Origin: Escherichia phage ph0011
Reading direction: 5' to 3' (one strand)
Length of the DNA stretch: 64,000 bases
Sequence record: OP557969.1
Below the pieces are notes generated by a model. It saw only the letters and a program-made list of their open reading frames with translations. It made no database searches and had not been told where the DNA came from. Within the stretch, counting starts at the first letter, position 1. Every line of letters begins with the position of its first letter. This document shows positions 31,868 through 41,117 of the stretch, piece by piece. The position numbers and the translations under genes were made by a program.

Positions 31868-32266
31868 ATGGGCAGATACTTATCGGGCATACAACACGGA
31901 CAGAATCATTGGGATTTACCTAAAGGGAAAGCTGAGGGTAATGAAACATTTAAAGAAGCTGCTGTCCGTGAGTGCTACGAAGAGACAGGATACGAAATTG
32001 ATGAAGATGATCTTTTGTTTCTTGGTGATGTTTCCTATAGAAAGGGAAAAAGGCTAGTACTTTTCTTTTATACTGCCAAAGACAAACCTGTACCTGAAGA
32101 ATTAGTTTGTAAAAGTACTTACACTAACAGATACGGTAAGAGTCATCCAGAATTGGATAAGTTCATGTACATTGATGTACGAGAATGTCAAAAGTATTTG
32201 ACTGAACGAATGTGTAACAGTATTATTAAAGCTGTTAAAGCTTTTCAAAGAAATAGAAGGAAATAA
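31868..32266 (+). CDS. Nudix hydrolase (apparent +1 frameshift relative to a 29-codon upstream ORF that encodes the expected N-terminal beta strands)
   Basis: Nudix box GKAEGNETFKEAAVRECYEETGY (Gx5Ex7REUxEExGU); WDLPKG upstream; N-terminal segment MRYSCGIIFYRDGQILIGHTT is in frame 31834..31923. Confidence 0.7.
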   Translation: MGRYLSGIQHGQNHWDLPKGKAEGNETFKEAAVRECYEETGYEIDEDDLLFLGDVSYRKGKRLVLFFYTAKDKPVPEELVCKSTYTNRYGKSHPELDKFMYIDVRECQKYLTERMCNSIIKAVKAFQRNRRK

Positions 32267-32267
32267 C

Positions 32268-32516
32268 ATGAAAGTTAAAATTTATGGTCGAAAGACTGGT
32301 TGTAAATTTTGCGATACAGCTAAAGCTGTGTGTGAACAAAATAATTTTGATATGGAGTTCATTGATATTGTTGCTGAAGGGATTGATGGTGCTAAACTAT
32401 CAGAAATTTGTGGTGAACCTGTGCGTCAAGTTCCACAGATTTTCGTGAATGATGTTTATGTACCTGGTGGTTGTACTGGATTTATCAACGGACTCAAAGA
32501 AGGTCATTGGAAATAA
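32268..32516 (+). CDS. nrdC: glutaredoxin/thioredoxin-like small redox protein (T4 NrdC-like)
   Basis: 82 aa with CKFC redox motif near N-terminus; position next to nucleotide-metabolism genes. Confidence 0.6.
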   Translation: MKVKIYGRKTGCKFCDTAKAVCEQNNFDMEFIDIVAEGIDGAKLSEICGEPVRQVPQIFVNDVYVPGGCTGFINGLKEGHWK

Positions 32517-32758
32517 TGGATATTGAAAAGGTATCATCTCGTGCAAAACATCTAGCTGATACATTGGGAGTTGAGTTTAAAATTCCTGATATTACAATAG
32601 CTAAAGAAAAAGCCCAGAAGAAAATCAATAAGATGAAAGAATATCTATCTAAACAGGAACAATATGATTCTGCTGTAGAATTTATTATACAATCTTTTAG
32701 TAAAGATGATATTAAAGCATTCATCCAATATGTGAAGGTTTCTGATAACCCTAAATAA
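32516..32758 (+). CDS. hypothetical protein (start at ATG overlapping nrdC stop, TAATG)
   Basis: in frame with ORF-track ORF 32471..32758. Confidence 0.45.
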   Translation: MDIEKVSSRAKHLADTLGVEFKIPDITIAKEKAQKKINKMKEYLSKQEQYDSAVEFIIQSFSKDDIKAFIQYVKVSDNPK

Positions 32759-32803
32759 TCATGAAGAACAAAAGTTCTTCATAACAATTTGGGAGATACT
32801 ATT

Positions 32804-33046
32804 ATGCTCAGTTTTCGTGAACAATTAGCAAAAGGTCAATTTCAGGCTAAAGCTCAAACTAACATTCCAAAAAAATCTGCTTTTTTGGGAACAATTACGG
32901 AAGATGGATATTGTGATTATGATGCACCAGAGGACTCATGGTACATCACAAAAGACACAAAACGCAGTAATAGACTTCACAAAAGTACAATAGCTAGAAA
33001 GCATCGAAAAGAATTGAAAAAAATCCGTTTCGGTGAAGAAGAATAA
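32804..33046 (+). CDS. hypothetical basic protein (start moved to ATG after GGGAGA)
   Basis: ORF-track frame. Confidence 0.4.
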   Translation: MLSFREQLAKGQFQAKAQTNIPKKSAFLGTITEDGYCDYDAPEDSWYITKDTKRSNRLHKSTIARKHRKELKKIRFGEEE

Positions 33047-33055
33047 TTTAAAATA

Positions 33056-33085
33056 AGGACTCTGACTATAGAGTCCTTTCTTTTC
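33056..33085 (+). terminator. intrinsic terminator
   Basis: aggactct/agagtcct 8-bp stem, T-rich tail. Confidence 0.7.
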
Positions 33086-33095
33086 GGAGAACATA

Positions 33096-33572
33096 ATGAT
33101 TCATGAACACAGAGGTAATCTGTTTGAATTATTCAGTACTGTAACAGATGATAATTCAGCATTACATATAATTGCTCATGGTTGTAACGCACAAGGTAAA
33201 ATGGGTTCAGGTTTTGCAAAAGAACTAAGAAATCGCTATCCAATGGCATATGATGATTATAAAGCATATGAAAAGGAAATGGGATTTCTAAGAACTGGGC
33301 AAATTTCATATTCTTTGGTAAGCAATGATTTGATTATTGCAAATTGTATTACGCAACAGTACTATGGCAATGATGGTAAAAAATATGTAAGTTATGATGC
33401 AGTTGACGATGTTTTTAAACAACTCAATTACTTATGTAATGTTGAACGAAGTATTCATGTGCACTTTCCGAAAATTGGAGCCGATTTGGGTGGTGGTAAC
33501 TGGAACGTTATCAAAGAAATCATTGATCATCGTTTGGTTAATGCAGAAAAACATTTATATATTCTAAAATAA
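33096..33572 (+). CDS. macro-domain (ADP-ribose-binding/processing) protein
   Basis: IIAHGCNAQGKMGSGFA ... FPKIGADLGGGNW pattern typical of macro/Appr-1-p processing domains. Confidence 0.55.
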   Translation: MIHEHRGNLFELFSTVTDDNSALHIIAHGCNAQGKMGSGFAKELRNRYPMAYDDYKAYEKEMGFLRTGQISYSLVSNDLIIANCITQQYYGNDGKKYVSYDAVDDVFKQLNYLCNVERSIHVHFPKIGADLGGGNWNVIKEIIDHRLVNAEKHLYILK

Positions 33573-33590
33573 AAAAAGGACTTGACAAAA

Positions 33591-33899
33591 ATGACTATGA
33601 CCGTTAAACTACTAAACATCAATAACATTGGCCCAGTACTAGCCGTTCTACAAACTGATTCCGCTGAAGCTGTTGTAGTCAACTACCCAGCACAACTCGG
33701 AACTGACGAAAATGGTGAAATCATTCTTCGTGATTATCTAGAGTTTGTCAGTATGGAGAAAAATGTTATTTTTTATAAATCCAACATTATTAGTGTTAGT
33801 GATGCAAATCCTGCATTGGTTGATGCTTATGTTGATGCTATTAAAGCAATCGAAGACACACCAAAAGTTTTCGTACCAGAGAATAAAATCATTGTATAA
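33591..33899 (+). CDS. hypothetical protein
   Basis: ATG in frame with ORF-track TTG start. Confidence 0.4.
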   Translation: MTMTVKLLNINNIGPVLAVLQTDSAEAVVVNYPAQLGTDENGEIILRDYLEFVSMEKNVIFYKSNIISVSDANPALVDAYVDAIKAIEDTPKVFVPENKIIV

Positions 33900-33911
33900 T
33901 AGAGGTATAAA

Positions 33912-34289
33912 ATGGCTGCTAATGACGTTAAAGTAAAAACTATTCAAGCTATCGTAGTACTGAAAGATTCAACTCCATCTCCAAAAGAATTGGTAATGGC
34001 TGGAATGACAATGCTTCATCAATACAATCCTGAATCACCAAATTATGTTCAAGAATACGAAGCAAAGCAGTTTAAAGTACATTGGCAGTCATGGATTAAA
34101 GATAATGAAATGGAGCAGGTCGTCTATGCTGCTGATGACATTTTTGAATTAGAACAAATTGAATATCTGGCAGGTCAACAATCAGTTCCATTGAGTATTT
34201 TTGGTAATGGTGAGGAAGTTTTAGTTCTAGGTCCATTCACTGCCGATGTAATTACACACTTACTAAGTAATTGTGAAAAAATTGGCTAA
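33912..34289 (+). CDS. hypothetical protein
   Basis: ORF track; SD-like GAGG upstream. Confidence 0.45.
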   Translation: MAANDVKVKTIQAIVVLKDSTPSPKELVMAGMTMLHQYNPESPNYVQEYEAKQFKVHWQSWIKDNEMEQVVYAADDIFELEQIEYLAGQQSVPLSIFGNGEEVLVLGPFTADVITHLLSNCEKIG

Positions 34290-34550
34290 ATGCTTAAAAT
34301 TATCAGGATACCGAAACAATACATTGATGTTAAATAATATAAAGTATTGGGTTGACCCATACTTTAATAATTCATTGTTAATGTACAGAGATAAAAGTCG
34401 AGATTTATACGGAATATATGTTACGCAGTTAATATATGCTATAGATTCAGAACATTTTACTCCGTTGGTATACCTGTACTGTCTTTATAATTCCAAATAA
34501 CTATTAGCACCTCTAAATAATGTATATAAACATTAATGAGGTGCTTTTTT

Positions 34551-35342
34551 ATGTCTTACGATTATATGGGTGGAAACCCAGATGCTCCTAACTTTGACCA
34601 TCGTGAAAAACTGAAAGATGTTATCACTCAAATGTTGGGTGCAGGGGCTGTTGAGGTAGAAATTACTGATGGTCAATTAGAAATTGCAATTGATAATGCT
34701 GTATCAAATTACAGAGCGTGGAGTTCTGCTTCTAAAGAAGAAGCATTTTTAAATATGAAATTCTATGATTCACAATCTGTATATATGCTCCCAACTGAAG
34801 TTGAAATAGTTAAAAAGATTTACCGCTATGGTAATGGTTATTTAAGTTCTGGGTCAGGTAACAGCGTAGACCCATTCTCATTGGCATTCACAAATACATA
34901 TCTATTGACTTCGGCTAGGAATGCAGGTGGATATGATTTAACAACTTATGATTTCAGTTTTCAATTTCAAGAATTGGTTGGTCGTATGTTTGGACGTGAA
35001 ATTATATTCCAATTTAACCCAATGACTAAGAAACTTATTATTGACCGTGATATTCGCGGTACAGAAGAAGTTCTACTACATGTGTATCATAATATTCCAG
35101 AACCATTATTGTTCCAACGTCAGCAAAGCTACCCGTGGCTTCGTGATTGGGCATTGTCTGAAGCAATGATTATGCTTGGTCGTAACCGTGCTAAGTTTGC
35201 TAGTTTGCCTGGACCACAAGGGACATTTTCAATGGATGGTGATACATTAAGAAATGAAGGTATCCAATTACAAGAACAACTAAAAGAACAGTTGAAGCGA
35301 TATAAAGATGGTGGAGAACCACTTGGAATGATTATCGGGTAA
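34551..35342 (+). CDS. hypothetical protein (start moved to ATG after GAGGTG; upstream hairpin)
   Basis: ORF-track frame 34536..35342; gcacctc ... gaggtgc hairpin plus T-run sits just 5' of start. Confidence 0.45.
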   Translation: MSYDYMGGNPDAPNFDHREKLKDVITQMLGAGAVEVEITDGQLEIAIDNAVSNYRAWSSASKEEAFLNMKFYDSQSVYMLPTEVEIVKKIYRYGNGYLSSGSGNSVDPFSLAFTNTYLLTSARNAGGYDLTTYDFSFQFQELVGRMFGREIIFQFNPMTKKLIIDRDIRGTEEVLLHVYHNIPEPLLFQRQQSYPWLRDWALSEAMIMLGRNRAKFASLPGPQGTFSMDGDTLRNEGIQLQEQLKEQLKRYKDGGEPLGMIIG

Positions 35343-35368
35343 ATTTTAAACATCAAAAAGAGTACTAT

Positions 35369-37363
35369 ATGAATAATGAAGAATTGAAAAAACTTTTGTT
35401 GTCAAAACATATTAATTCATGGGTACATTTATACAAAGGGGACTCTCATGTGAGGGATCTCCTTTCTATTTTTGGAATAGAACCAAAAACTGATTTCGAA
35501 ATATATAAAATTCTATATATGTTCATGAATGATATATCAACAATCCCAACTGCATATTGCGGAAAAAAAGCAAGATATAAAAATTTTCAAAAAGGATTTT
35601 ATAAATTTTGCGATGATTATATTATTAATAAAAAAAATACATGTAATGTATGTCATGAAATGTATTATAAAAATCGAACAAATAAAACAAAATCAACATT
35701 AATGGGTATGTATGGTGTATCTAATGTGTCCCAGATCCAAGAAGTAAAGAAAAAGAAAGAAAAAACTAACATGGAGCGTTATGGTGTTTCTACTAATTTA
35801 CAAACATCAGAATCTAAAGAGAAAATCAAACAAACTAATATAGAGCGTTATGGATGTGAATATCCAAACCAAAACCCTGAAATATTTAATAAAGTAAAAG
35901 AGACAAATTTAAAAAAATATGGTGTTGAATTCCAAAGTAAAAGAAATGAAGTAAAAGAGAAAGCAAAAAATACAAATATCTTAAAATACGGTACTGAGTA
36001 CTCTTTATCATCACCGACGATTCGTGAAAAAATCAATAAAACAAATCTTGAACGATATGGTGGTAACCCACTATCAAATAAAATTATCCAAGATAAAATA
36101 AAAAATACCAATATATTGAAGTATAATTCATTTTATCCAATGAGCAATTTGGATGTTCAGAAAAAAGTTCATAATACAAATGTGGAAAGATATGGTGTAA
36201 AACACCCATCCCAGAATAATTCTATTATTGAAAAAATGAAAGAAACCACAAAAAATAGATATGGGGCTGAACACTACTCACAAACTGATGAGTATAAAGA
36301 GAAAATGTCACTTGCTCATCTAGACGAAAGATATACTATAATTGTTGAAAATATTGATAAAAACTATATTCCATTATTTGAAAACACAGACCTGATGATG
36401 AAAGTTAACACCGATGAATACCCATTTTGGTGTGAATATTGTGATGATTTGTTTTATAGTAAGTACAAAAATCATAAAGTGAAATGTAAGTGTCAGAAAA
36501 ATAATGGTCATTCCTTGAAAGAGAAAGAGTTAGTTGATTATATAAAATCATTAATACCAAATATGGAAATTATAGAAAATGACCGTTCAGTACTGAAACC
36601 TAAAGAGTTGGATGTGTATATTCCAGAACTTAAACTAGCTATTGAATTTAATGGTGTTTATTGGCATAATGATGAAAATATCAATTCTACTAAACATCAA
36701 GATAAGGTATTAGATTGCTTAAAACATGGTGTAAATCTTATTCACATTTATGAAGATGAATGGGATAACCCATTAACCAATAAAATTATCAAGGAACGTT
36801 TAAAGAATAAACTTCTAGCGTCTAATAGAATTTATGCTAGAAAATGTACTGTTAGAAACATAGACAAACAAGTAAGTAATAAGTTTGTGAAATCACATCA
36901 TATCCAAGGTGTTGCACAAGCAAGTATACACATTGGGCTTTACTATGGGTGCGATTTAGTTGCTGTTATGACCTTTGGTAAATCAAGGTTTGATAAAAAC
37001 TATGAATATGAATTAATCAGATACTGTTCATCTGGTACAGTTGTTGGTGGTGCATCAAAATTACTAAAATATTTCGAAACCGTATATAATCCACAATCAT
37101 TGTTGACATATGCTGATATGGATTGGAGTAATGGTAATCTTTACACGGTTCTTGGTTTTGAGTTAGATAGCTATACAGAACCTGGATATTTTTATTATGA
37201 CCCACAAACGCACGAGAGAATTTCACGTCAAAAATGTCAAAAACATAAATTGATTAAGAAAGGTCACGATATCAACTTAACCGAGAGACAAATTTGCTGT
37301 GATGTATTGGGATATTATAAGATTTACAACTCTGGTAATATAAAATACACAAAAAAATATTAA
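35369..37363 (+). CDS. multidomain protein: N-terminal region, eight tandem ~25-aa repeats with (E/K)(R/K)YG core, PD-(D/E)xK (Vsr/DUF559-like) endonuclease motif, C-terminal domain of unknown function
   Basis: repeats NMERYGVSTNLQ / NIERYGCEYPNQ / LKKYGVEFQS / ILKYGTEYSL / LERYGGNPLS / ILKYNSFYPM / VERYGVKHPS / NRYGAEHYS; ELDVYIPELKLAIEFNGVYWH nuclease-like motif. Confidence 0.5.
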   Translation: MNNEELKKLLLSKHINSWVHLYKGDSHVRDLLSIFGIEPKTDFEIYKILYMFMNDISTIPTAYCGKKARYKNFQKGFYKFCDDYIINKKNTCNVCHEMYYKNRTNKTKSTLMGMYGVSNVSQIQEVKKKKEKTNMERYGVSTNLQTSESKEKIKQTNIERYGCEYPNQNPEIFNKVKETNLKKYGVEFQSKRNEVKEKAKNTNILKYGTEYSLSSPTIREKINKTNLERYGGNPLSNKIIQDKIKNTNILKYNSFYPMSNLDVQKKVHNTNVERYGVKHPSQNNSIIEKMKETTKNRYGAEHYSQTDEYKEKMSLAHLDERYTIIVENIDKNYIPLFENTDLMMKVNTDEYPFWCEYCDDLFYSKYKNHKVKCKCQKNNGHSLKEKELVDYIKSLIPNMEIIENDRSVLKPKELDVYIPELKLAIEFNGVYWHNDENINSTKHQDKVLDCLKHGVNLIHIYEDEWDNPLTNKIIKERLKNKLLASNRIYARKCTVRNIDKQVSNKFVKSHHIQGVAQASIHIGLYYGCDLVAVMTFGKSRFDKNYEYELIRYCSSGTVVGGASKLLKYFETVYNPQSLLTYADMDWSNGNLYTVLGFELDSYTEPGYFYYDPQTHERISRQKCQKHKLIKKGHDINLTERQICCDVLGYYKIYNSGNIKYTKKY

Positions 37364-37370
37364 TAAAATA

Positions 37371-37397
37371 GACTCCATTTTTTTGGGGTCTTTTTTC
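37371..37397 (+). terminator. intrinsic terminator
   Basis: gactcc/ggggtc stem with G-U pair, T-rich loop and tail. Confidence 0.5.
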
Positions 37398-37445
37398 ATA
37401 TGTGGTGATATAATGTTTATTACATTAACGTAAAGGAATAATCCT

Positions 37446-37712
37446 ATGAATACTGAGAAGGTAATGTACAATCGATATCGTTGTGGTAGACCAACCCTAG
37501 ATTATGAATCTACTGAAAATTTCTGGAGATTTATCAAAGATTCAATTGTTGATGTTATCGGTAGAGATCGAGTAAATGCATGGGCTAGTATATATCGTGA
37601 CAATAATGGTGAAACATTTTTCATCACATATGTTTCTGTGTATGACGAAAACGAGATGATTGTGGATTTACTTGAATGTTTAGTAGGGAAAGATTTAATA
37701 GAAATTGTATAA
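37446..37712 (+). CDS. hypothetical protein
   Basis: ORF track; TGgTGATATAAT -10-like element upstream at 37409. Confidence 0.45.
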   Translation: MNTEKVMYNRYRCGRPTLDYESTENFWRFIKDSIVDVIGRDRVNAWASIYRDNNGETFFITYVSVYDENEMIVDLLECLVGKDLIEIV

Positions 37713-37730
37713 AATACATGGAGTAGTATA

Positions 37731-38357
37731 ATGGGAAGACACATAATTGCAATCAATGGAACTATTGGAAGCGGGAAAGATACTTTTGCTAAAACATTCA
37801 TTGAAAATGGATATACAAAAATGTCATTTGCGACCAATCTAAAAGATTCGGTTGCTTCTATTTTTGGTTGGGATCGTGAAATGCTCGAAGGAACTACCAA
37901 GGAAAGTCGAAAGATTCGTGAAGAGCCAGATCAGTACTGGTGTAAAAAGATGGGACGTGATGATGTTTCACCTCGTTGGGTACTACAAAATTACGGAACT
38001 AATATTTTACGTAAGTATTTTCATAATGATATCTGGGTATTTAGTTTAGAAAAAACAATGCAAGAAATTGATGGAAATATTATCATTACTGATTGTCGTT
38101 TCCCAAATGAATTAAAAATGATTAGATCACAAAACGGAACTATTATTGAAGTACGTCGTGTACTTCCACATTGGTATGGTCTAGCGGCATCATATAATAA
38201 AAGAAATATTTCTATTAAACCAGTAGAACTTGAAACAGTCCATGAATCTGAATGGGCTTGGATTGGAATAAATTATCCTGATATTATTGTACATAATAAT
38301 GGTACACTAGAAGACTTACAGAAAAAAGCATTGGAGATTATTTACTCTAATATGTAA
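37731..38357 (+). CDS. deoxynucleoside monophosphate kinase (T4 gp1-like)
   Basis: P-loop INGTIGSGKDT; overall pattern (R ... G ... HESE ... NNGTLEDL) parallels T4 gene 1 product as recalled. Confidence 0.6.
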   Translation: MGRHIIAINGTIGSGKDTFAKTFIENGYTKMSFATNLKDSVASIFGWDREMLEGTTKESRKIREEPDQYWCKKMGRDDVSPRWVLQNYGTNILRKYFHNDIWVFSLEKTMQEIDGNIIITDCRFPNELKMIRSQNGTIIEVRRVLPHWYGLAASYNKRNISIKPVELETVHESEWAWIGINYPDIIVHNNGTLEDLQKKALEIIYSNM

Positions 38358-38453: not shown

Positions 38454-41117
38454 ATGGCAGGAGATCTACTCTCACCTGGCGTGTCTATCTCAGTAACTGA
38501 TAACAGTATGAGTACTGCTGCTGCTCCTGGCACAGTACCACTATTTGTAATTGCTACTGCTGAAGACAAACTTGTCCCTGGCAGCAACGCAATTGCCACT
38601 GGGACTACTAAAGCAAATGCAGGTAAATTGCAGCTTTTGACATCACAAAAAAGTTCACTTGATACCTACGGTACACCAATTTTCCAAACGAATAACGGAT
38701 CTGTTGTACAAGGAGATGAACTAAACGAATATGGTCTACATGCAGTATATTCATACCTAGGAATTACCAATCGTGCATATGTAATTCGTGCTGATATCGA
38801 CCTAGCACAACTTGCACCACGTGCTGAAGCTCCAACTGGTCCAGTATCTAATGGTACTTTGTGGTTTGACGCTGCACAATCGCAAGTTGAAGCATATGTA
38901 GCTAAAAAAGATAGTCCAAGTAGTTTTTATGATTGGCAACTTAAGCCAGTAACTTTTGTTAGTGCAGAAGAAGTTGATGATGTAAGCCTAGTAGGTTTAA
39001 ATGTTGATGATTTAGTTCTACGTTATAAGCCAAGTAATGGTCAGATGTTAATGTATAAGCGTACTGCTTCCGGTTTGGTTCAAATGGAAACCTACTTATC
39101 CCCAATTAACAAAGTTCCAGTAGGTCCAACAGTAGAAAAAGGTAACATTTGGATTCGTGATGGATATACACAAAACGGTTCTAACTATTTTGGTACTCGT
39201 TTTGTTATTAAACGTTATGCCTCGTTAACTCAAGTTTGGAATGTTGTACCAACATACACAGGTAATTCATTTCAAGAAATCGAAGCGAAAAGTGGAGTAC
39301 TAAACAATAGTTATATCGCATCTCGTTTTGATGAAGATAGTAAGAGTTTCTCTTTCTATATCCAAAGTGCTAAACTATCAACTATTAGTGCACCAGCGTT
39401 GCCATTAGGTGAAACTATCATTGAACAAGCTGGTGATGATAGTTACATGACATTTACTTACTTGAATAAGTCAGTGAAAGTACTAGCAGTACCGAATGGT
39501 GGTGTTATTAATACACAAACTATCATCAATAATCTGAATTCTAATGCTGAAGTGATTAACGATGGTTTCAAATTCAAACGCGAATCAAATGGTAGTTTAG
39601 TTGTTTCTAATATTAAAGGATATAGTTTCAAAATCACACAAAGTGGTGATGACATTTTTGCAGAAGACGAACTACAAAAACTAACTGTAAACAGCAACAA
39701 CTACTCTCAAATTAATATTAAAAACTTTCGTGTTAGTGAATCCGTGCCGCGTAATATCGCAAAAGATGGAACTTTGTGGTATGATTTCGGGAACTCAGAT
39801 AATCTAACTGTCACTCTATATGTGGCTGATGTGGCAAATGACAAATGGGAACTTGTACAAGATGAAAACAAATATGTACAAGTTGATGAACCAGCAGCAG
39901 ACCGTACAATTTGGGTATGCCCACTATCACAAGGTGTTGATGGTTATGAATTCTATCGCAATGTTGATGGCGAGTGGGTTAAGCTTGATAACACTGATCA
40001 AAGCACCCTAAATGGTATGGTTTTCCACGATTTTAATATTCCATCCACTGTTCCAGCAGCAGCATTATATCAAAATGGTATGTTGGCTGTTGATTTAGGC
40101 AACACTGAAGGTGTTGTTAAAAAAATGGTTAATGGTCAATGGGAAGTTGTTAGTGGTGTAAGTATTGATGGTGCTGGCTTGTTTGGTCGTGCTGCACAAC
40201 GCAAACTAGTTGTTGAAGCTTTGGCTGCTGTCATTGTAGGCAATGATGAAATTCGTTCTGAATTTATTGATTTTAACCTAATTTGTGTACCTGGGTATGT
40301 CGAAACACTATCTGATTGTGTAACACTAAACACTGATCGTAAAGAAACTGCATTTATTGTTACCGATGTACCAGCACGTTTAGATCCAACTGGAAACGGT
40401 AGTGCCGTACAGAAATGGGCAACCAATGCAAATAATGCACCAACTAATGGTCCAGTGGGTAGAACAACTGCATATGATTATGCTGCTCAGTATATGGGTT
40501 GGTGTTTAAGTACCAATGTTGACGGGATGGAAGTTGCTGTACCTGGAAGTACAATTGCGATGCGTACATATGCATACAGTGATAGTGTAAGTTATGTATG
40601 GTATCCACCTGCTGGTACAACTCGTGGTGTTGTAACTAATGCTGCAAGTACTGGTTTTATTAATAGTGAAGGTGAATATCAACCAGTCGTATACAATCAA
40701 GGTCAACGTGATGTTATGTATACTAATAACATTAACCCAATTGCGATGCGTCCTAATCGTGGATTGTTGGTATATGGTGATAAAACACTATCTGCTAACC
40801 AAACTTCCGCTTTAAGCCGTGTTAACGTAGCTCGTTTGGTTGTTTATATTCGTCGCCAACTAGAAATTATTTCTGAACCATTCCTATTCCGTTTGAATAC
40901 ACCAAGTACTCGTCAGGAATTCAGTGGTGTTGTGAATAGTTTCCTAGCTGAAATTGTACAACAACAAGGTCTATATAACTTTGCTGTAGTTTGTGATGAA
41001 AGCAACAATACTTCTGAACGTATTGATCGTAATGAACTATGGATGGATATTGCAATCCAACCAACTAAGTCTATCAACTTCATTTATGTACCAATTCGTA
41101 TTGAGAAGACTCAATAA
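38454..41117 (+). CDS. tail sheath protein (long form, 887 aa)
   Basis: N-terminal LLSPGV and C-terminal block LLVYGDKTLSANQTSALSRVNVARLVVYIRRQLEIISEPFLF ... NFAVVCDESNN match contractile-sheath family conservation; GGAGGA SD. Confidence 0.75.
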   Translation: MAGDLLSPGVSISVTDNSMSTAAAPGTVPLFVIATAEDKLVPGSNAIATGTTKANAGKLQLLTSQKSSLDTYGTPIFQTNNGSVVQGDELNEYGLHAVYSYLGITNRAYVIRADIDLAQLAPRAEAPTGPVSNGTLWFDAAQSQVEAYVAKKDSPSSFYDWQLKPVTFVSAEEVDDVSLVGLNVDDLVLRYKPSNGQMLMYKRTASGLVQMETYLSPINKVPVGPTVEKGNIWIRDGYTQNGSNYFGTRFVIKRYASLTQVWNVVPTYTGNSFQEIEAKSGVLNNSYIASRFDEDSKSFSFYIQSAKLSTISAPALPLGETIIEQAGDDSYMTFTYLNKSVKVLAVPNGGVINTQTIINNLNSNAEVINDGFKFKRESNGSLVVSNIKGYSFKITQSGDDIFAEDELQKLTVNSNNYSQINIKNFRVSESVPRNIAKDGTLWYDFGNSDNLTVTLYVADVANDKWELVQDENKYVQVDEPAADRTIWVCPLSQGVDGYEFYRNVDGEWVKLDNTDQSTLNGMVFHDFNIPSTVPAAALYQNGMLAVDLGNTEGVVKKMVNGQWEVVSGVSIDGAGLFGRAAQRKLVVEALAAVIVGNDEIRSEFIDFNLICVPGYVETLSDCVTLNTDRKETAFIVTDVPARLDPTGNGSAVQKWATNANNAPTNGPVGRTTAYDYAAQYMGWCLSTNVDGMEVAVPGSTIAMRTYAYSDSVSYVWYPPAGTTRGVVTNAASTGFINSEGEYQPVVYNQGQRDVMYTNNINPIAMRPNRGLLVYGDKTLSANQTSALSRVNVARLVVYIRRQLEIISEPFLFRLNTPSTRQEFSGVVNSFLAEIVQQQGLYNFAVVCDESNNTSERIDRNELWMDIAIQPTKSINFIYVPIRIEKTQ

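Follow-up and report, generated by a model that had tools for sequence, protein, structure and literature searches.

It has been reported that hef of the T4-like phage U5 is located at the nrdA-nrdB locus and cleaves nrdB (PMC2988022), that Dickeya phage LIMEstone1 carries four such genes, F-LimIII, VII, VIII and X (PMC3296691), and that "bacteriophage Hef type homing endonucleases" fall within the EDxHD family, in which they were placed by Taylor et al. (PMC3239194). In another line of work, fusions of Mom with a restriction endonuclease (REase) domain in jumbo phages were predicted by Iyer et al. in 2021 to have a modification-plus-restriction function (PMC7824862). The Hef-like homing endonucleases and these Mom-REase fusions appear to be the same proteins, and our literature search found no cross-citation between the two literatures on their shared identity. 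Here we describe a gene of this kind in a 64,000-nucleotide stretch of Escherichia phage ph0011 (sequence record OP557969.1), hereafter the window, whose source is an Asteriusvirus, i.e., a 121Q/PBECO4-like jumbo coliphage of ~350 kb. The gene, which we refer to as the HEG (homing endonuclease gene), is an open reading frame (ORF) on the plus strand at 35369..37363; coordinates are those of the whole window, and amino acid numbers are those of the 664-aa protein. Our analysis indicates, with a probability of roughly 0.8, that the HEG is a functional free-standing homing endonuclease gene from the Hef-like branch of the Vsr-like (EDxHD) family, and it has recently been copied, together with neighbouring DNA, between related jumbo phages of E. 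coli. Homing was ranked as the primary explanation because of the distribution of the gene, the anatomy of its insertion, the co-conversion of its flanks, and the multi-copy behaviour of its family.

The ORF, which had been pointed out in a preliminary description made from the sequence alone, is real, with an ATG start and one terminal stop codon. The protein is identical (100%) to an entry from Escherichia phage ph0011 annotated "endonuclease domain-containing protein", and the copy in phage UE-S1 is annotated "hypothetical protein". At the DNA level the HEG is 93.4% identical to genes in UE-S1 and TH47, and no other record of the phage collection was matched by megablast. The protein matched PHROG 3339, "homing endonuclease", with E=2.1e-165 and 552.8 bits, the best stretch pairing aa 230-664 with profile positions 111-535 of 536; the NCBIfam search of the protein returned XF1762 alone, a sub-threshold match without meaning. 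Homologues were found by tblastn in 438 phage records, many of them annotated as Hef-like or as homing endonucleases, and as many as 12 family copies are present per genome in Campylobacter phages. One homologue, with 30% identity (E=6e-42) and two or three KYG repeats, is located between nrdA and nrdB in a T4-like phage. With Hef of U5 and the Hef-like free-standing enzymes of LIMEstone1 and of Campylobacter phage CP81/CPt10, the HEG protein shares membership in PHROG 3339, a Vsr-like nuclease followed by a C-terminal domain of ~190 aa (most tblastn matches cover aa 374-662), and a free-standing, intergenic gene position adjoining a conserved gene. It differs from them in its far longer N-terminal extension, which contains nine repeats and an extra helical/zinc-ribbon module, and from Hef of U5 in its insertion site and presumed target, the neck gene region instead of nrdB, and in its host, a jumbo phage. 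The link to Hef of U5 rests on the locus, the annotation and the statement in PMC3239194, and not on the sequence of U5 Hef itself.

Within the window, tblastn returned the HEG alone and no paralogue. Elsewhere in related jumbo phages, family paralogues occur at four places each in UE-S1 and Muenster, and Campylobacter phages have them at 10-12 places. In the T4-like Escherichia phage FL23 (1-3172), nrdA is annotated as two pieces with another "homing endonuclease" ORF between them, nrdB is in pieces as well, and a Hef-like ORF lies between nrdA and nrdB, so that the ribonucleotide reductase locus of this phage holds a dense cluster of mobile elements.

The distribution of the HEG was surveyed in closely related Asteriusvirus phages, for which 35 records include the two flanks of the locus. 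The gene is carried by two of them, UE-S1 and TH47, and the same gap is present in the other 33 records, which represent 31 distinct phages. The presence/absence polymorphism among relatives that the preliminary description had put forward as a check is thus seen, with the gene absent from 33 of 35 records; of the two observations that it had named as refuting, a missing nuclease fold and universal conservation in syntenic position, neither was made. The gene is sporadic in Asteriusvirus (2 of 35) and fixed in the sister genus Alcyoneusvirus.

The insertion lies directly behind a gene for the neck, or head-tail adaptor, protein Ad2 (T4 gp13-like; 34536..35342, plus strand), which was identified by PHROG 211 (E=9e-42) in agreement with the annotation of 121Q. 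Homology to 121Q stops at 35345, 3 nt past the stop codon of the neck gene, and restarts at 37384. According to these blastn breakpoints, the segment absent from HEG-less relatives is 35346..37383 (plus strand), 2,038 bp that replace 15 bp of 121Q. The HEG therefore sits between the stop codon of the neck gene and the terminator of the neck gene. An intrinsic terminator consisting of a hairpin with an 8-bp stem and a following TTTTT run is located just past the HEG stop codon (37370..37391, plus strand), and comparison with 121Q showed that the equivalent terminator directly follows the neck gene in HEG-less phages. A degenerate copy of the left arm and loop of this terminator is found at 35355..35371 (plus strand), where AAAAAGAGTACTATATG corresponds to AAAAGGACTCCTATATG of 121Q at 14 of 17 bases, and this copy now supplies the ribosome-binding region and the start codon of the HEG. 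A duplication of the terminator arm at the two ends of the insert is thus possible, and the resemblance could also be due to chance in AT-rich DNA. The GC content of the HEG (28.5%) is the lowest of any 2-kb stretch in the window, for which the median is 34.2%.

At exactly this insertion site, ~0.5 kb is missing from the Salmonella Asteriusvirus SD-2_S15 (equivalent to ~35320-37850), comprising the end of the neck gene, the terminator, an 88-aa ORF that follows the HEG in the window, and the first ~120 nt of the dNMP kinase gene; another 91 bp is missing within the neck gene of the same phage. This deletion could be a scar of imprecise HEG loss, a deletion at a hotspot, or an assembly artefact.

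The evidence that the HEG is mobile is strong, and a trace of its transfer was found in TH47. When compared with fEgEco12, which lacks the HEG, TH47 is 99.2% identical over 32000-33900 and 98.4% identical over 38454-41000, and between ~34220 and 38232, a distance of ~4 kb, its affinity switches. There, the left flank of the HEG in TH47 is 95-96% identical to the window phage and UE-S1 and only 85.5% identical to fEgEco12, and the right flank is 94.7% identical to UE-S1 and 82.4% identical to fEgEco12. TH47 is therefore the recipient, a fEgEco12-like genome into which a UE-S1-like donor has passed the HEG along with ~1.1 kb of its left flank and ~0.85 kb of its right flank. The left-flank tract, which includes most of the neck gene (34226..35345, plus strand; the informative sites switch in TH47 at 34214/34226), is common to all three HEG carriers, with identities of 95-97% among HEG-bearing phages versus 84-86% to HEG-less phages. 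Consistent with this, the neck genes of the three carriers differ from one another by a synonymous divergence (dS) of 0.09-0.24, versus 0.8-1.1 when a carrier is compared with a non-carrier. Such a pattern is what double-strand-break repair from a HEG-bearing donor would be expected to produce, and it shows the result of homing, not the event itself.

The dS of the HEG itself is 0.275 between the window phage and TH47 and 0.149 between UE-S1 and TH47, and the neck-gene dS is comparable for both pairs. For the window phage and UE-S1, on the other hand, the neck-gene dS is 0.088 versus a HEG dS of 0.28, which suggests further exchange in the left flank between these two lineages. On this reading, the flank was made uniform at a later date than the HEG, which is the effect expected if genomes that bear the HEG are cut and repaired again and again. 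It was also observed that the last ~200 bp of the neck gene (35100-35300) are 100% identical between the window phage and UE-S1, while their HEGs differ by 6.6%. The HEG locus can be marked as a hotspot of recombination by which a neck-gene allele passes from one Asteriusvirus lineage to another, and the pair of TH47 and fEgEco12 illustrates, with unusual clarity for a natural case, a co-conversion tract in jumbo phages.

All three Asteriusvirus copies of the HEG are intact and encode 664 aa. The ratio of non-synonymous to synonymous substitution rates (dN/dS; Nei-Gojobori method, three Asteriusvirus copies) is ~0.10 overall and 0.07-0.14 per module, with 0.07-0.12 for the nuclease and 0.07-0.08 for the C-terminal domain, which is the most constrained. 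All modules of the HEG are under purifying selection.

The nuclease domain occupies aa 381-477 (36509..36799, plus strand). The motif ELDVYIPELKLAIEFNGVYWH...NLIHIYEDEW, which the preliminary description had quoted as resembling a PD-(D/E)xK nuclease core, is present at aa 413-465, and the nuclease fold that it suggested is borne out by the prediction of a Vsr-like fold. With phmmer, the sole match among PDB sequences was the catalytic domain of I-Bth0305I (3R3P; E=0.0024), and a profile of 19 family members matched 3R3P with E=8.3e-5. When the full AlphaFold2 (AF2) model was searched with Foldseek, E. coli Vsr (1cw0_A) was recovered with a probability of 1.00, E=4e-3 and a target-normalised TM-score of 0.55, the sole high-probability match outside the GNAT fold. 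A 99.7% HHpred match to the same structure (1CW0) was reported by the annotators of phage Muenster for the Muenster orthologue. The DUF559 core proposed in the preliminary description did not stand, as the DUF559 model (PF04480) gives no match to the HEG protein and a related model, REase_MTES_1575, matches weakly; DUF559 was accordingly rejected as the identity of the motif. On the T4-like homologue, DUF559 gave a sub-threshold score (16 bits versus 20.6).

Conserved residues of the nuclease are S382, E385, E413, D415, E426, N428, H433, H443, K446, E462 and W465, and D415, E426, H433, H443 and K446 are all kept in 75 of 78 homologues. On the basis of the residue assignments in the I-Bth0305I paper (PMC3239194), D415 (78 of 78 homologues) corresponds to D196 of I-Bth0305I and D51 of Vsr, E426 (77 of 78) to the family-specific Glu of I-Bth0305I and the F62 position of Vsr, N428 (57 of 78) to N208 and H64, and H433 (77 of 78) to H213 and H69. 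Four of the five EDxHD catalytic positions are thus matched. The fifth, the D222 position of I-Bth0305I (D97 in Vsr), is occupied by H443, which is His in 77 of 78 homologues and is followed three residues later by the invariant K446. Judged from these alignments, the nuclease is assigned to the EDxHD/Vsr-like lineage, with a putative sub-family variant of the last motif position. I-Bth0305I resembles the HEG protein in having a Vsr-like catalytic domain with these four equivalent residues, and its DNA-binding region is N-terminal to the nuclease, as the putative one of the HEG protein would be. It differs in that it is intron-encoded, has 266 aa with two NUMOD2/helix-turn-helix (HTH) motifs, lacks a GNAT domain and carries Asp where the HEG protein has His443, and the sequence match between the two is marginal (E=1e-3 to 1e-4). 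E. coli Vsr and DUF559 share the fold and the D...E-x-(N/H)-G-x-x-W-H core; Vsr differs as a repair enzyme that nicks T:G mismatches and has no accessory domains.

According to an AF2 model built on 78 homologues (mean predicted local distance difference test score, pLDDT, of 91.3), the HEG protein consists of five modules. The N-terminal module (aa 1-108; 35369..35692, plus strand) was assigned by DSSP four helices and a beta-hairpin zinc ribbon formed by C64, C81, C92 and C95, of which C64, C81 and C92 are invariant or nearly so in the 78 homologues and C95 is invariant in the family alignment. It is followed by nine 23-aa helical repeats (DUF7487; aa 109-314; 35693..36310, plus strand) and by a linker helix with a second zinc ribbon (C355, C358, C373 and C375; aa 315-380; 36311..36508, plus strand), in which the pattern is CxxC...CxC and the family consensus is KCxxCG...CxxCxP. 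The nuclease and a Mom-like GNAT domain (aa 478-664; 36800..37360, plus strand) complete the protein. The region N-terminal to the nuclease contains a basic repeat array with an isoelectric point (pI) of 9.6 and two zinc ribbons, and these modules are not of the NUMOD2/HTH type.

The eight repeats of about 25 aa claimed in the preliminary description were recovered as eight canonical units, which start at aa 132, 155, 178, 201, 224, 246, 269 and 292, but the period is 23 aa, one unit having 22, and a degenerate ninth unit (STLMGMYG...) is present at ~aa 109. The repeat consensus is K-x-T-N-L-E-(K/R)-Y-G-V-E-x-P-x-Q-S-x-E-I-K-E-K-x. At a lag of 23 residues, 64 of 183 positions in aa 109-314 are identical, and because the best lag in 5,000 shuffles reached 20.7 +/- 2.1 with a maximum of 32, this periodicity is far beyond chance. 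The repeats match Pfam DUF7487 (PF24308) with E=2.7e-39 and 135.8 bits versus a gathering threshold of 27. The likeness to NUMOD repeats suggested earlier was not confirmed, since no NUMOD Pfam model matches at E<=1, and NUMOD was rejected as their identity. The NUMOD modules of GIY-YIG and HNH homing endonucleases are similar in concept, as short repeated modules joined to a nuclease; they differ in having no sequence relationship to the repeats described here, which are DUF7487 with a strict 23-aa period. In the model, each unit is a 15-residue helix with a short turn. In a set of 120 homologues, 5 to 18 units were counted per protein, and a spacing of 23 aa is overwhelmingly dominant (785 intervals). 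Conservation is seen in the scaffold residues T, N, L, E, K/R, Y and G, and variability is greatest at positions +4 to +6 and +9. Such a range of copy numbers is what a modular nucleic-acid-binding array would show. We infer that the repeat array binds DNA, and it is possible, independently of what the C-terminal domain does, that DNA is read by the 23-aa DUF7487 repeats as a modular array of a new kind.

The ~190 aa behind the nuclease, to which the preliminary description had assigned an unknown function, have this length (aa 478-664), and they form a GNAT domain of the Mom family. A Foldseek search with the model placed Mom at the top (E=1.3e-6), the next GNAT following at 7e-4. The domain also matched PHROG 1384, "Mom-like DNA modification protein", with E=3.6e-7, and hhalign of 24 family C-termini with 28 Mom homologues gave a probability of 89.9% and E=1.7e-6 over 121 columns. 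The Mom Pfam model (PF25680) scored 21.0 bits on the HEG protein, under its gathering threshold of 27.1. The same model matched a protein of Proteus phage Pm5461 labelled "Hef-like" with E=6e-5. Earlier searches of PDB sequences with a single sequence and a single profile had returned glyphosate N-acetyltransferase (E=0.003) and not Mom, and a first hhalign comparison with Mu Mom alone had given a probability of 29%; the link to Mom is solid because of the Mom-family profile, PHROG 1384 and the fold searches.

When the residues of Mom described in a 2026 study (PMC13219725) were mapped onto the domain, five of the seven catalytic or essential residues were found to be present. H58, R111 and Y159 of Mom correspond to H511, R551 and Y592, each conserved in 78 of 78 homologues, S124 corresponds to S563 (62 of 78), and D149 corresponds to D583 (58 Asp and 14 Asn of 78). 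R111 is a Mom-specific and not a general GNAT residue (PMC7261163). The position of Y59 is occupied by I512, the Tyr not being conserved, and that of R151 by D585, which is preceded by Met584. Arg or Lys is found at 584 or 585 in 59 of 78 homologues, and the R151 equivalent is missing in the window protein (DMD) and in its RaK2-clade relatives (DMD/DMN); the R151A mutant of Mom is inactive (PMC13219725). The domain is thus a GNAT that belongs to the Mom family as a divergent relative, its active site being preserved for the most part but not in full, and it is not a curated member of Mom. Phage Mu Mom (8BV8), a stand-alone protein of 241 aa, is a tRNA-dependent adenine N6 glycyl/carbamoylmethyl transferase. 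Besides the profile-profile match and the equivalents of H58, R111, S124, D149 and Y159, the model of the HEG protein has a helical insertion before the last strands that is placed as the HTH-like insertion of Mom is. The differences are the missing equivalents of R151 and Y59, a sequence alignment that ends before the HTH-like insertion, and the fact that no modification is known in the HEG-carrying phages. The window contains no tRNA genes, which might have been relevant to the tRNA-dependent reaction of Mom.

A profile search of 1.84 billion cluster representatives found the Mom-like domain in 20,442 proteins at E<=1e-3, and in all of the top 150 matches, from proteins of 222-1,064 aa, it is the C-terminal domain. 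Its likeliest role is DNA engagement, possibly with flipping of an adenine, at or near the target. We consider it doubtful, yet worth stating, that Hef-like homing endonucleases have a catalytically active Mom-like domain, which installs a Mom-type, aminoacyl-tRNA-dependent adduct on adenine within or close to the recognition site of the enzyme itself. If this were true, the element would bring its immunity with it, or a benefit against restriction, in the polypeptide of the nuclease, which could explain purifying selection on the family even where it is fixed, and this very large family (>20,000 cluster representatives) would be a reservoir of site-directed DNA hypermodification enzymes. Since the chemistry of Mom was solved only in 2026, the hypothesis is now testable. 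Of most specialist interest here is the conserved Mom-like domain in a very large family of homing endonucleases, followed by the 23-aa repeat array.

All 10 records of Alcyoneusvirus, those of RaK2, K64-1 and Muenster among them, have an orthologue of the HEG at the same position. It has 667 aa, is colinear with the HEG protein and is 55% identical over the full length, compared with 65-82% for the neighbouring core genes, and it is under purifying selection (omega 0.08-0.20). RaK2 ORF039, K64-1 gp045 and Muenster gp277 share with the HEG the site between the neck and dNMP kinase genes and are annotated "homing endonuclease" or "endonuclease domain-containing protein". The RefSeq label on the RaK2 and K64-1 orthologues is already homing endonuclease, and the UE-S1 and ph0011 proteins can now be named Hef-like homing endonuclease. 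The two genera differ in that the gene is fixed in Alcyoneusvirus and sporadic in Asteriusvirus, and Muenster differs in having a terminator upstream of the HEG instead of downstream as in the window phage.

The preliminary description had called the architecture typical of a mobile or homing endonuclease, which is supported by the Vsr-like fold, the sporadic distribution and the signature of co-conversion. In the mechanism that we propose, the basic N-terminal part, with its zinc ribbon and nine repeats, would hold the enzyme on a long stretch of DNA, and the Vsr-like domain, by analogy with the family, would cut the genome of a HEG-less relative in the same infected cell, at a site within or close to the neck gene. 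The break would be repaired by recombination from the HEG-carrying genome, so that the HEG and ~1 kb of flank would be copied into the recipient, and what this step leaves behind is shown by the mosaic of TH47. In this scheme the GNAT domain of the Mom family at the C-terminus is an integral part of the enzyme and is under selection, and it may perhaps also modify adenine chemically.

Several observations weigh against homing as the function of this gene. Neither an activity nor a site of cleavage has been described for the HEG protein; the cleavage site could not be located from the pattern of polymorphism because the co-converted tract is too long, nor is the target locatable from sequence, and the neck gene is at present a candidate location. 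His443 instead of Asp at the D222 position of I-Bth0305I makes the active site unlike that of the characterised member, and the proposed DNA-binding role of the repeats finds no structural precedent, as none was found for a DUF7487 array. The HEG has no convincing promoter of its own, since a scan for sigma-70-like sites did no better than shuffled sequences (23 sites versus 25.9 expected) and nothing was found in the 26-bp spacer upstream of the HEG. It is therefore probably transcribed by read-through with the neck gene, and late expression alongside that gene, if true, would leave little time for homing. Finally, the gene is fixed in Alcyoneusvirus and yet constrained, while decay would be expected for a purely selfish element without empty sites. 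The protein may also confer a benefit, or empty sites may exist in relatives that have not been sampled.

Among the alternatives, the one with most in its favour is a modification-restriction weapon in a single chain, in which adenines in the phage's own DNA would be modified by the Mom-like domain, and host DNA or that of superinfecting phages, if unmodified, would be degraded by the domain with the REase fold. Such a function has been predicted in print for Mom-REase fusions (PMC7824862), and the C-terminal domain is a genuine relative of Mom that retains five active-site residues, three of them invariant in 78 homologues and including the Mom-specific R111, has the lowest dN/dS of the protein (0.07-0.08), and belongs to a gene that is fixed and constrained in Alcyoneusvirus. 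However, sporadic occurrence, precise insertion between genes, low GC content and co-converted flanks form a signature of homing and not of defence, and a system of this kind does not need up to 12 copies per genome at different sites. The long repeat array suggests a long specific site instead of bulk degradation, no PADLOC defence model matches the HEG, and for this protein in particular the missing equivalent of R151, whose mutation inactivates Mom, together with Ile in place of Y59, calls for caution. We therefore regard modification-restriction as an unlikely main function, which is what our estimate refers to, as it is not exclusive of homing.

Homing is also favoured over two explanations that would deny the HEG present mobility. 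The colinear orthologue, 55% identical and at the same site in every sampled Alcyoneusvirus, would suit an ordinary, vertically inherited RaK2-like jumbo phage gene that was deleted in most Asteriusvirus lineages, the more so because flanking core genes are 65-82% identical between the genera, which makes an origin in the common ancestor possible, and because the ~0.5-kb deletion in SD-2_S15 lies exactly at the HEG site. The HEG of TH47 was nevertheless a gain, since with ~2 kb of flanks it came from a lineage with a neck-gene dS of ~0.9-1.0 and sits in a backbone that is 98-99% identical to fEgEco12, and loss would have had to remove the gene cleanly and in the same way, with the terminator left intact, from 31 distinct HEG-less phages belonging to at least two sub-lineages; the anomalous GC content also speaks against it, and we consider loss without mobility very improbable. 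The least probable of the explanations weighed here, with hardly any weight in our judgement, is that the gene is a remnant, in decay or domesticated, that has lost nuclease activity and is kept only for a DNA-binding or regulatory protein, e.g., an autorepressor. The change of the D222-equivalent catalytic position to His would fit such a remnant, but His443 is conserved in 77 of 78 homologues alongside the invariant K446 and is thus a feature of the family and not a lesion, the nuclease has a dN/dS of 0.07-0.12, and the recent transfer into TH47 implies recent activity.

The location of the HEG just before the dNMP kinase and tail genes, as the preliminary description had it, was also confirmed by the neighbouring genes: the neck gene lies upstream, and an 88-aa ORF (37446-37712, plus strand; PHROG 34967, unknown function), the dNMP kinase gene (37731..38357) and the tail sheath gene (38454..41117) lie downstream. 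No other stretch of the region is as poorly conserved as the 88-aa ORF, which has 76-85% nucleotide identity in every comparison and is absent from Alcyoneusvirus, where the HEG abuts the dNMP kinase gene. Further upstream, a macro-domain (Appr-1-p processing) protein and a putative peptidyl-tRNA/aminoacyl-tRNA hydrolase, so named in the annotation of relatives, are encoded at 33096-33572 and 33912-34289 (both plus strand), and the left edge of the co-conversion tract (~34220) corresponds to the 3' end of the hydrolase ORF.

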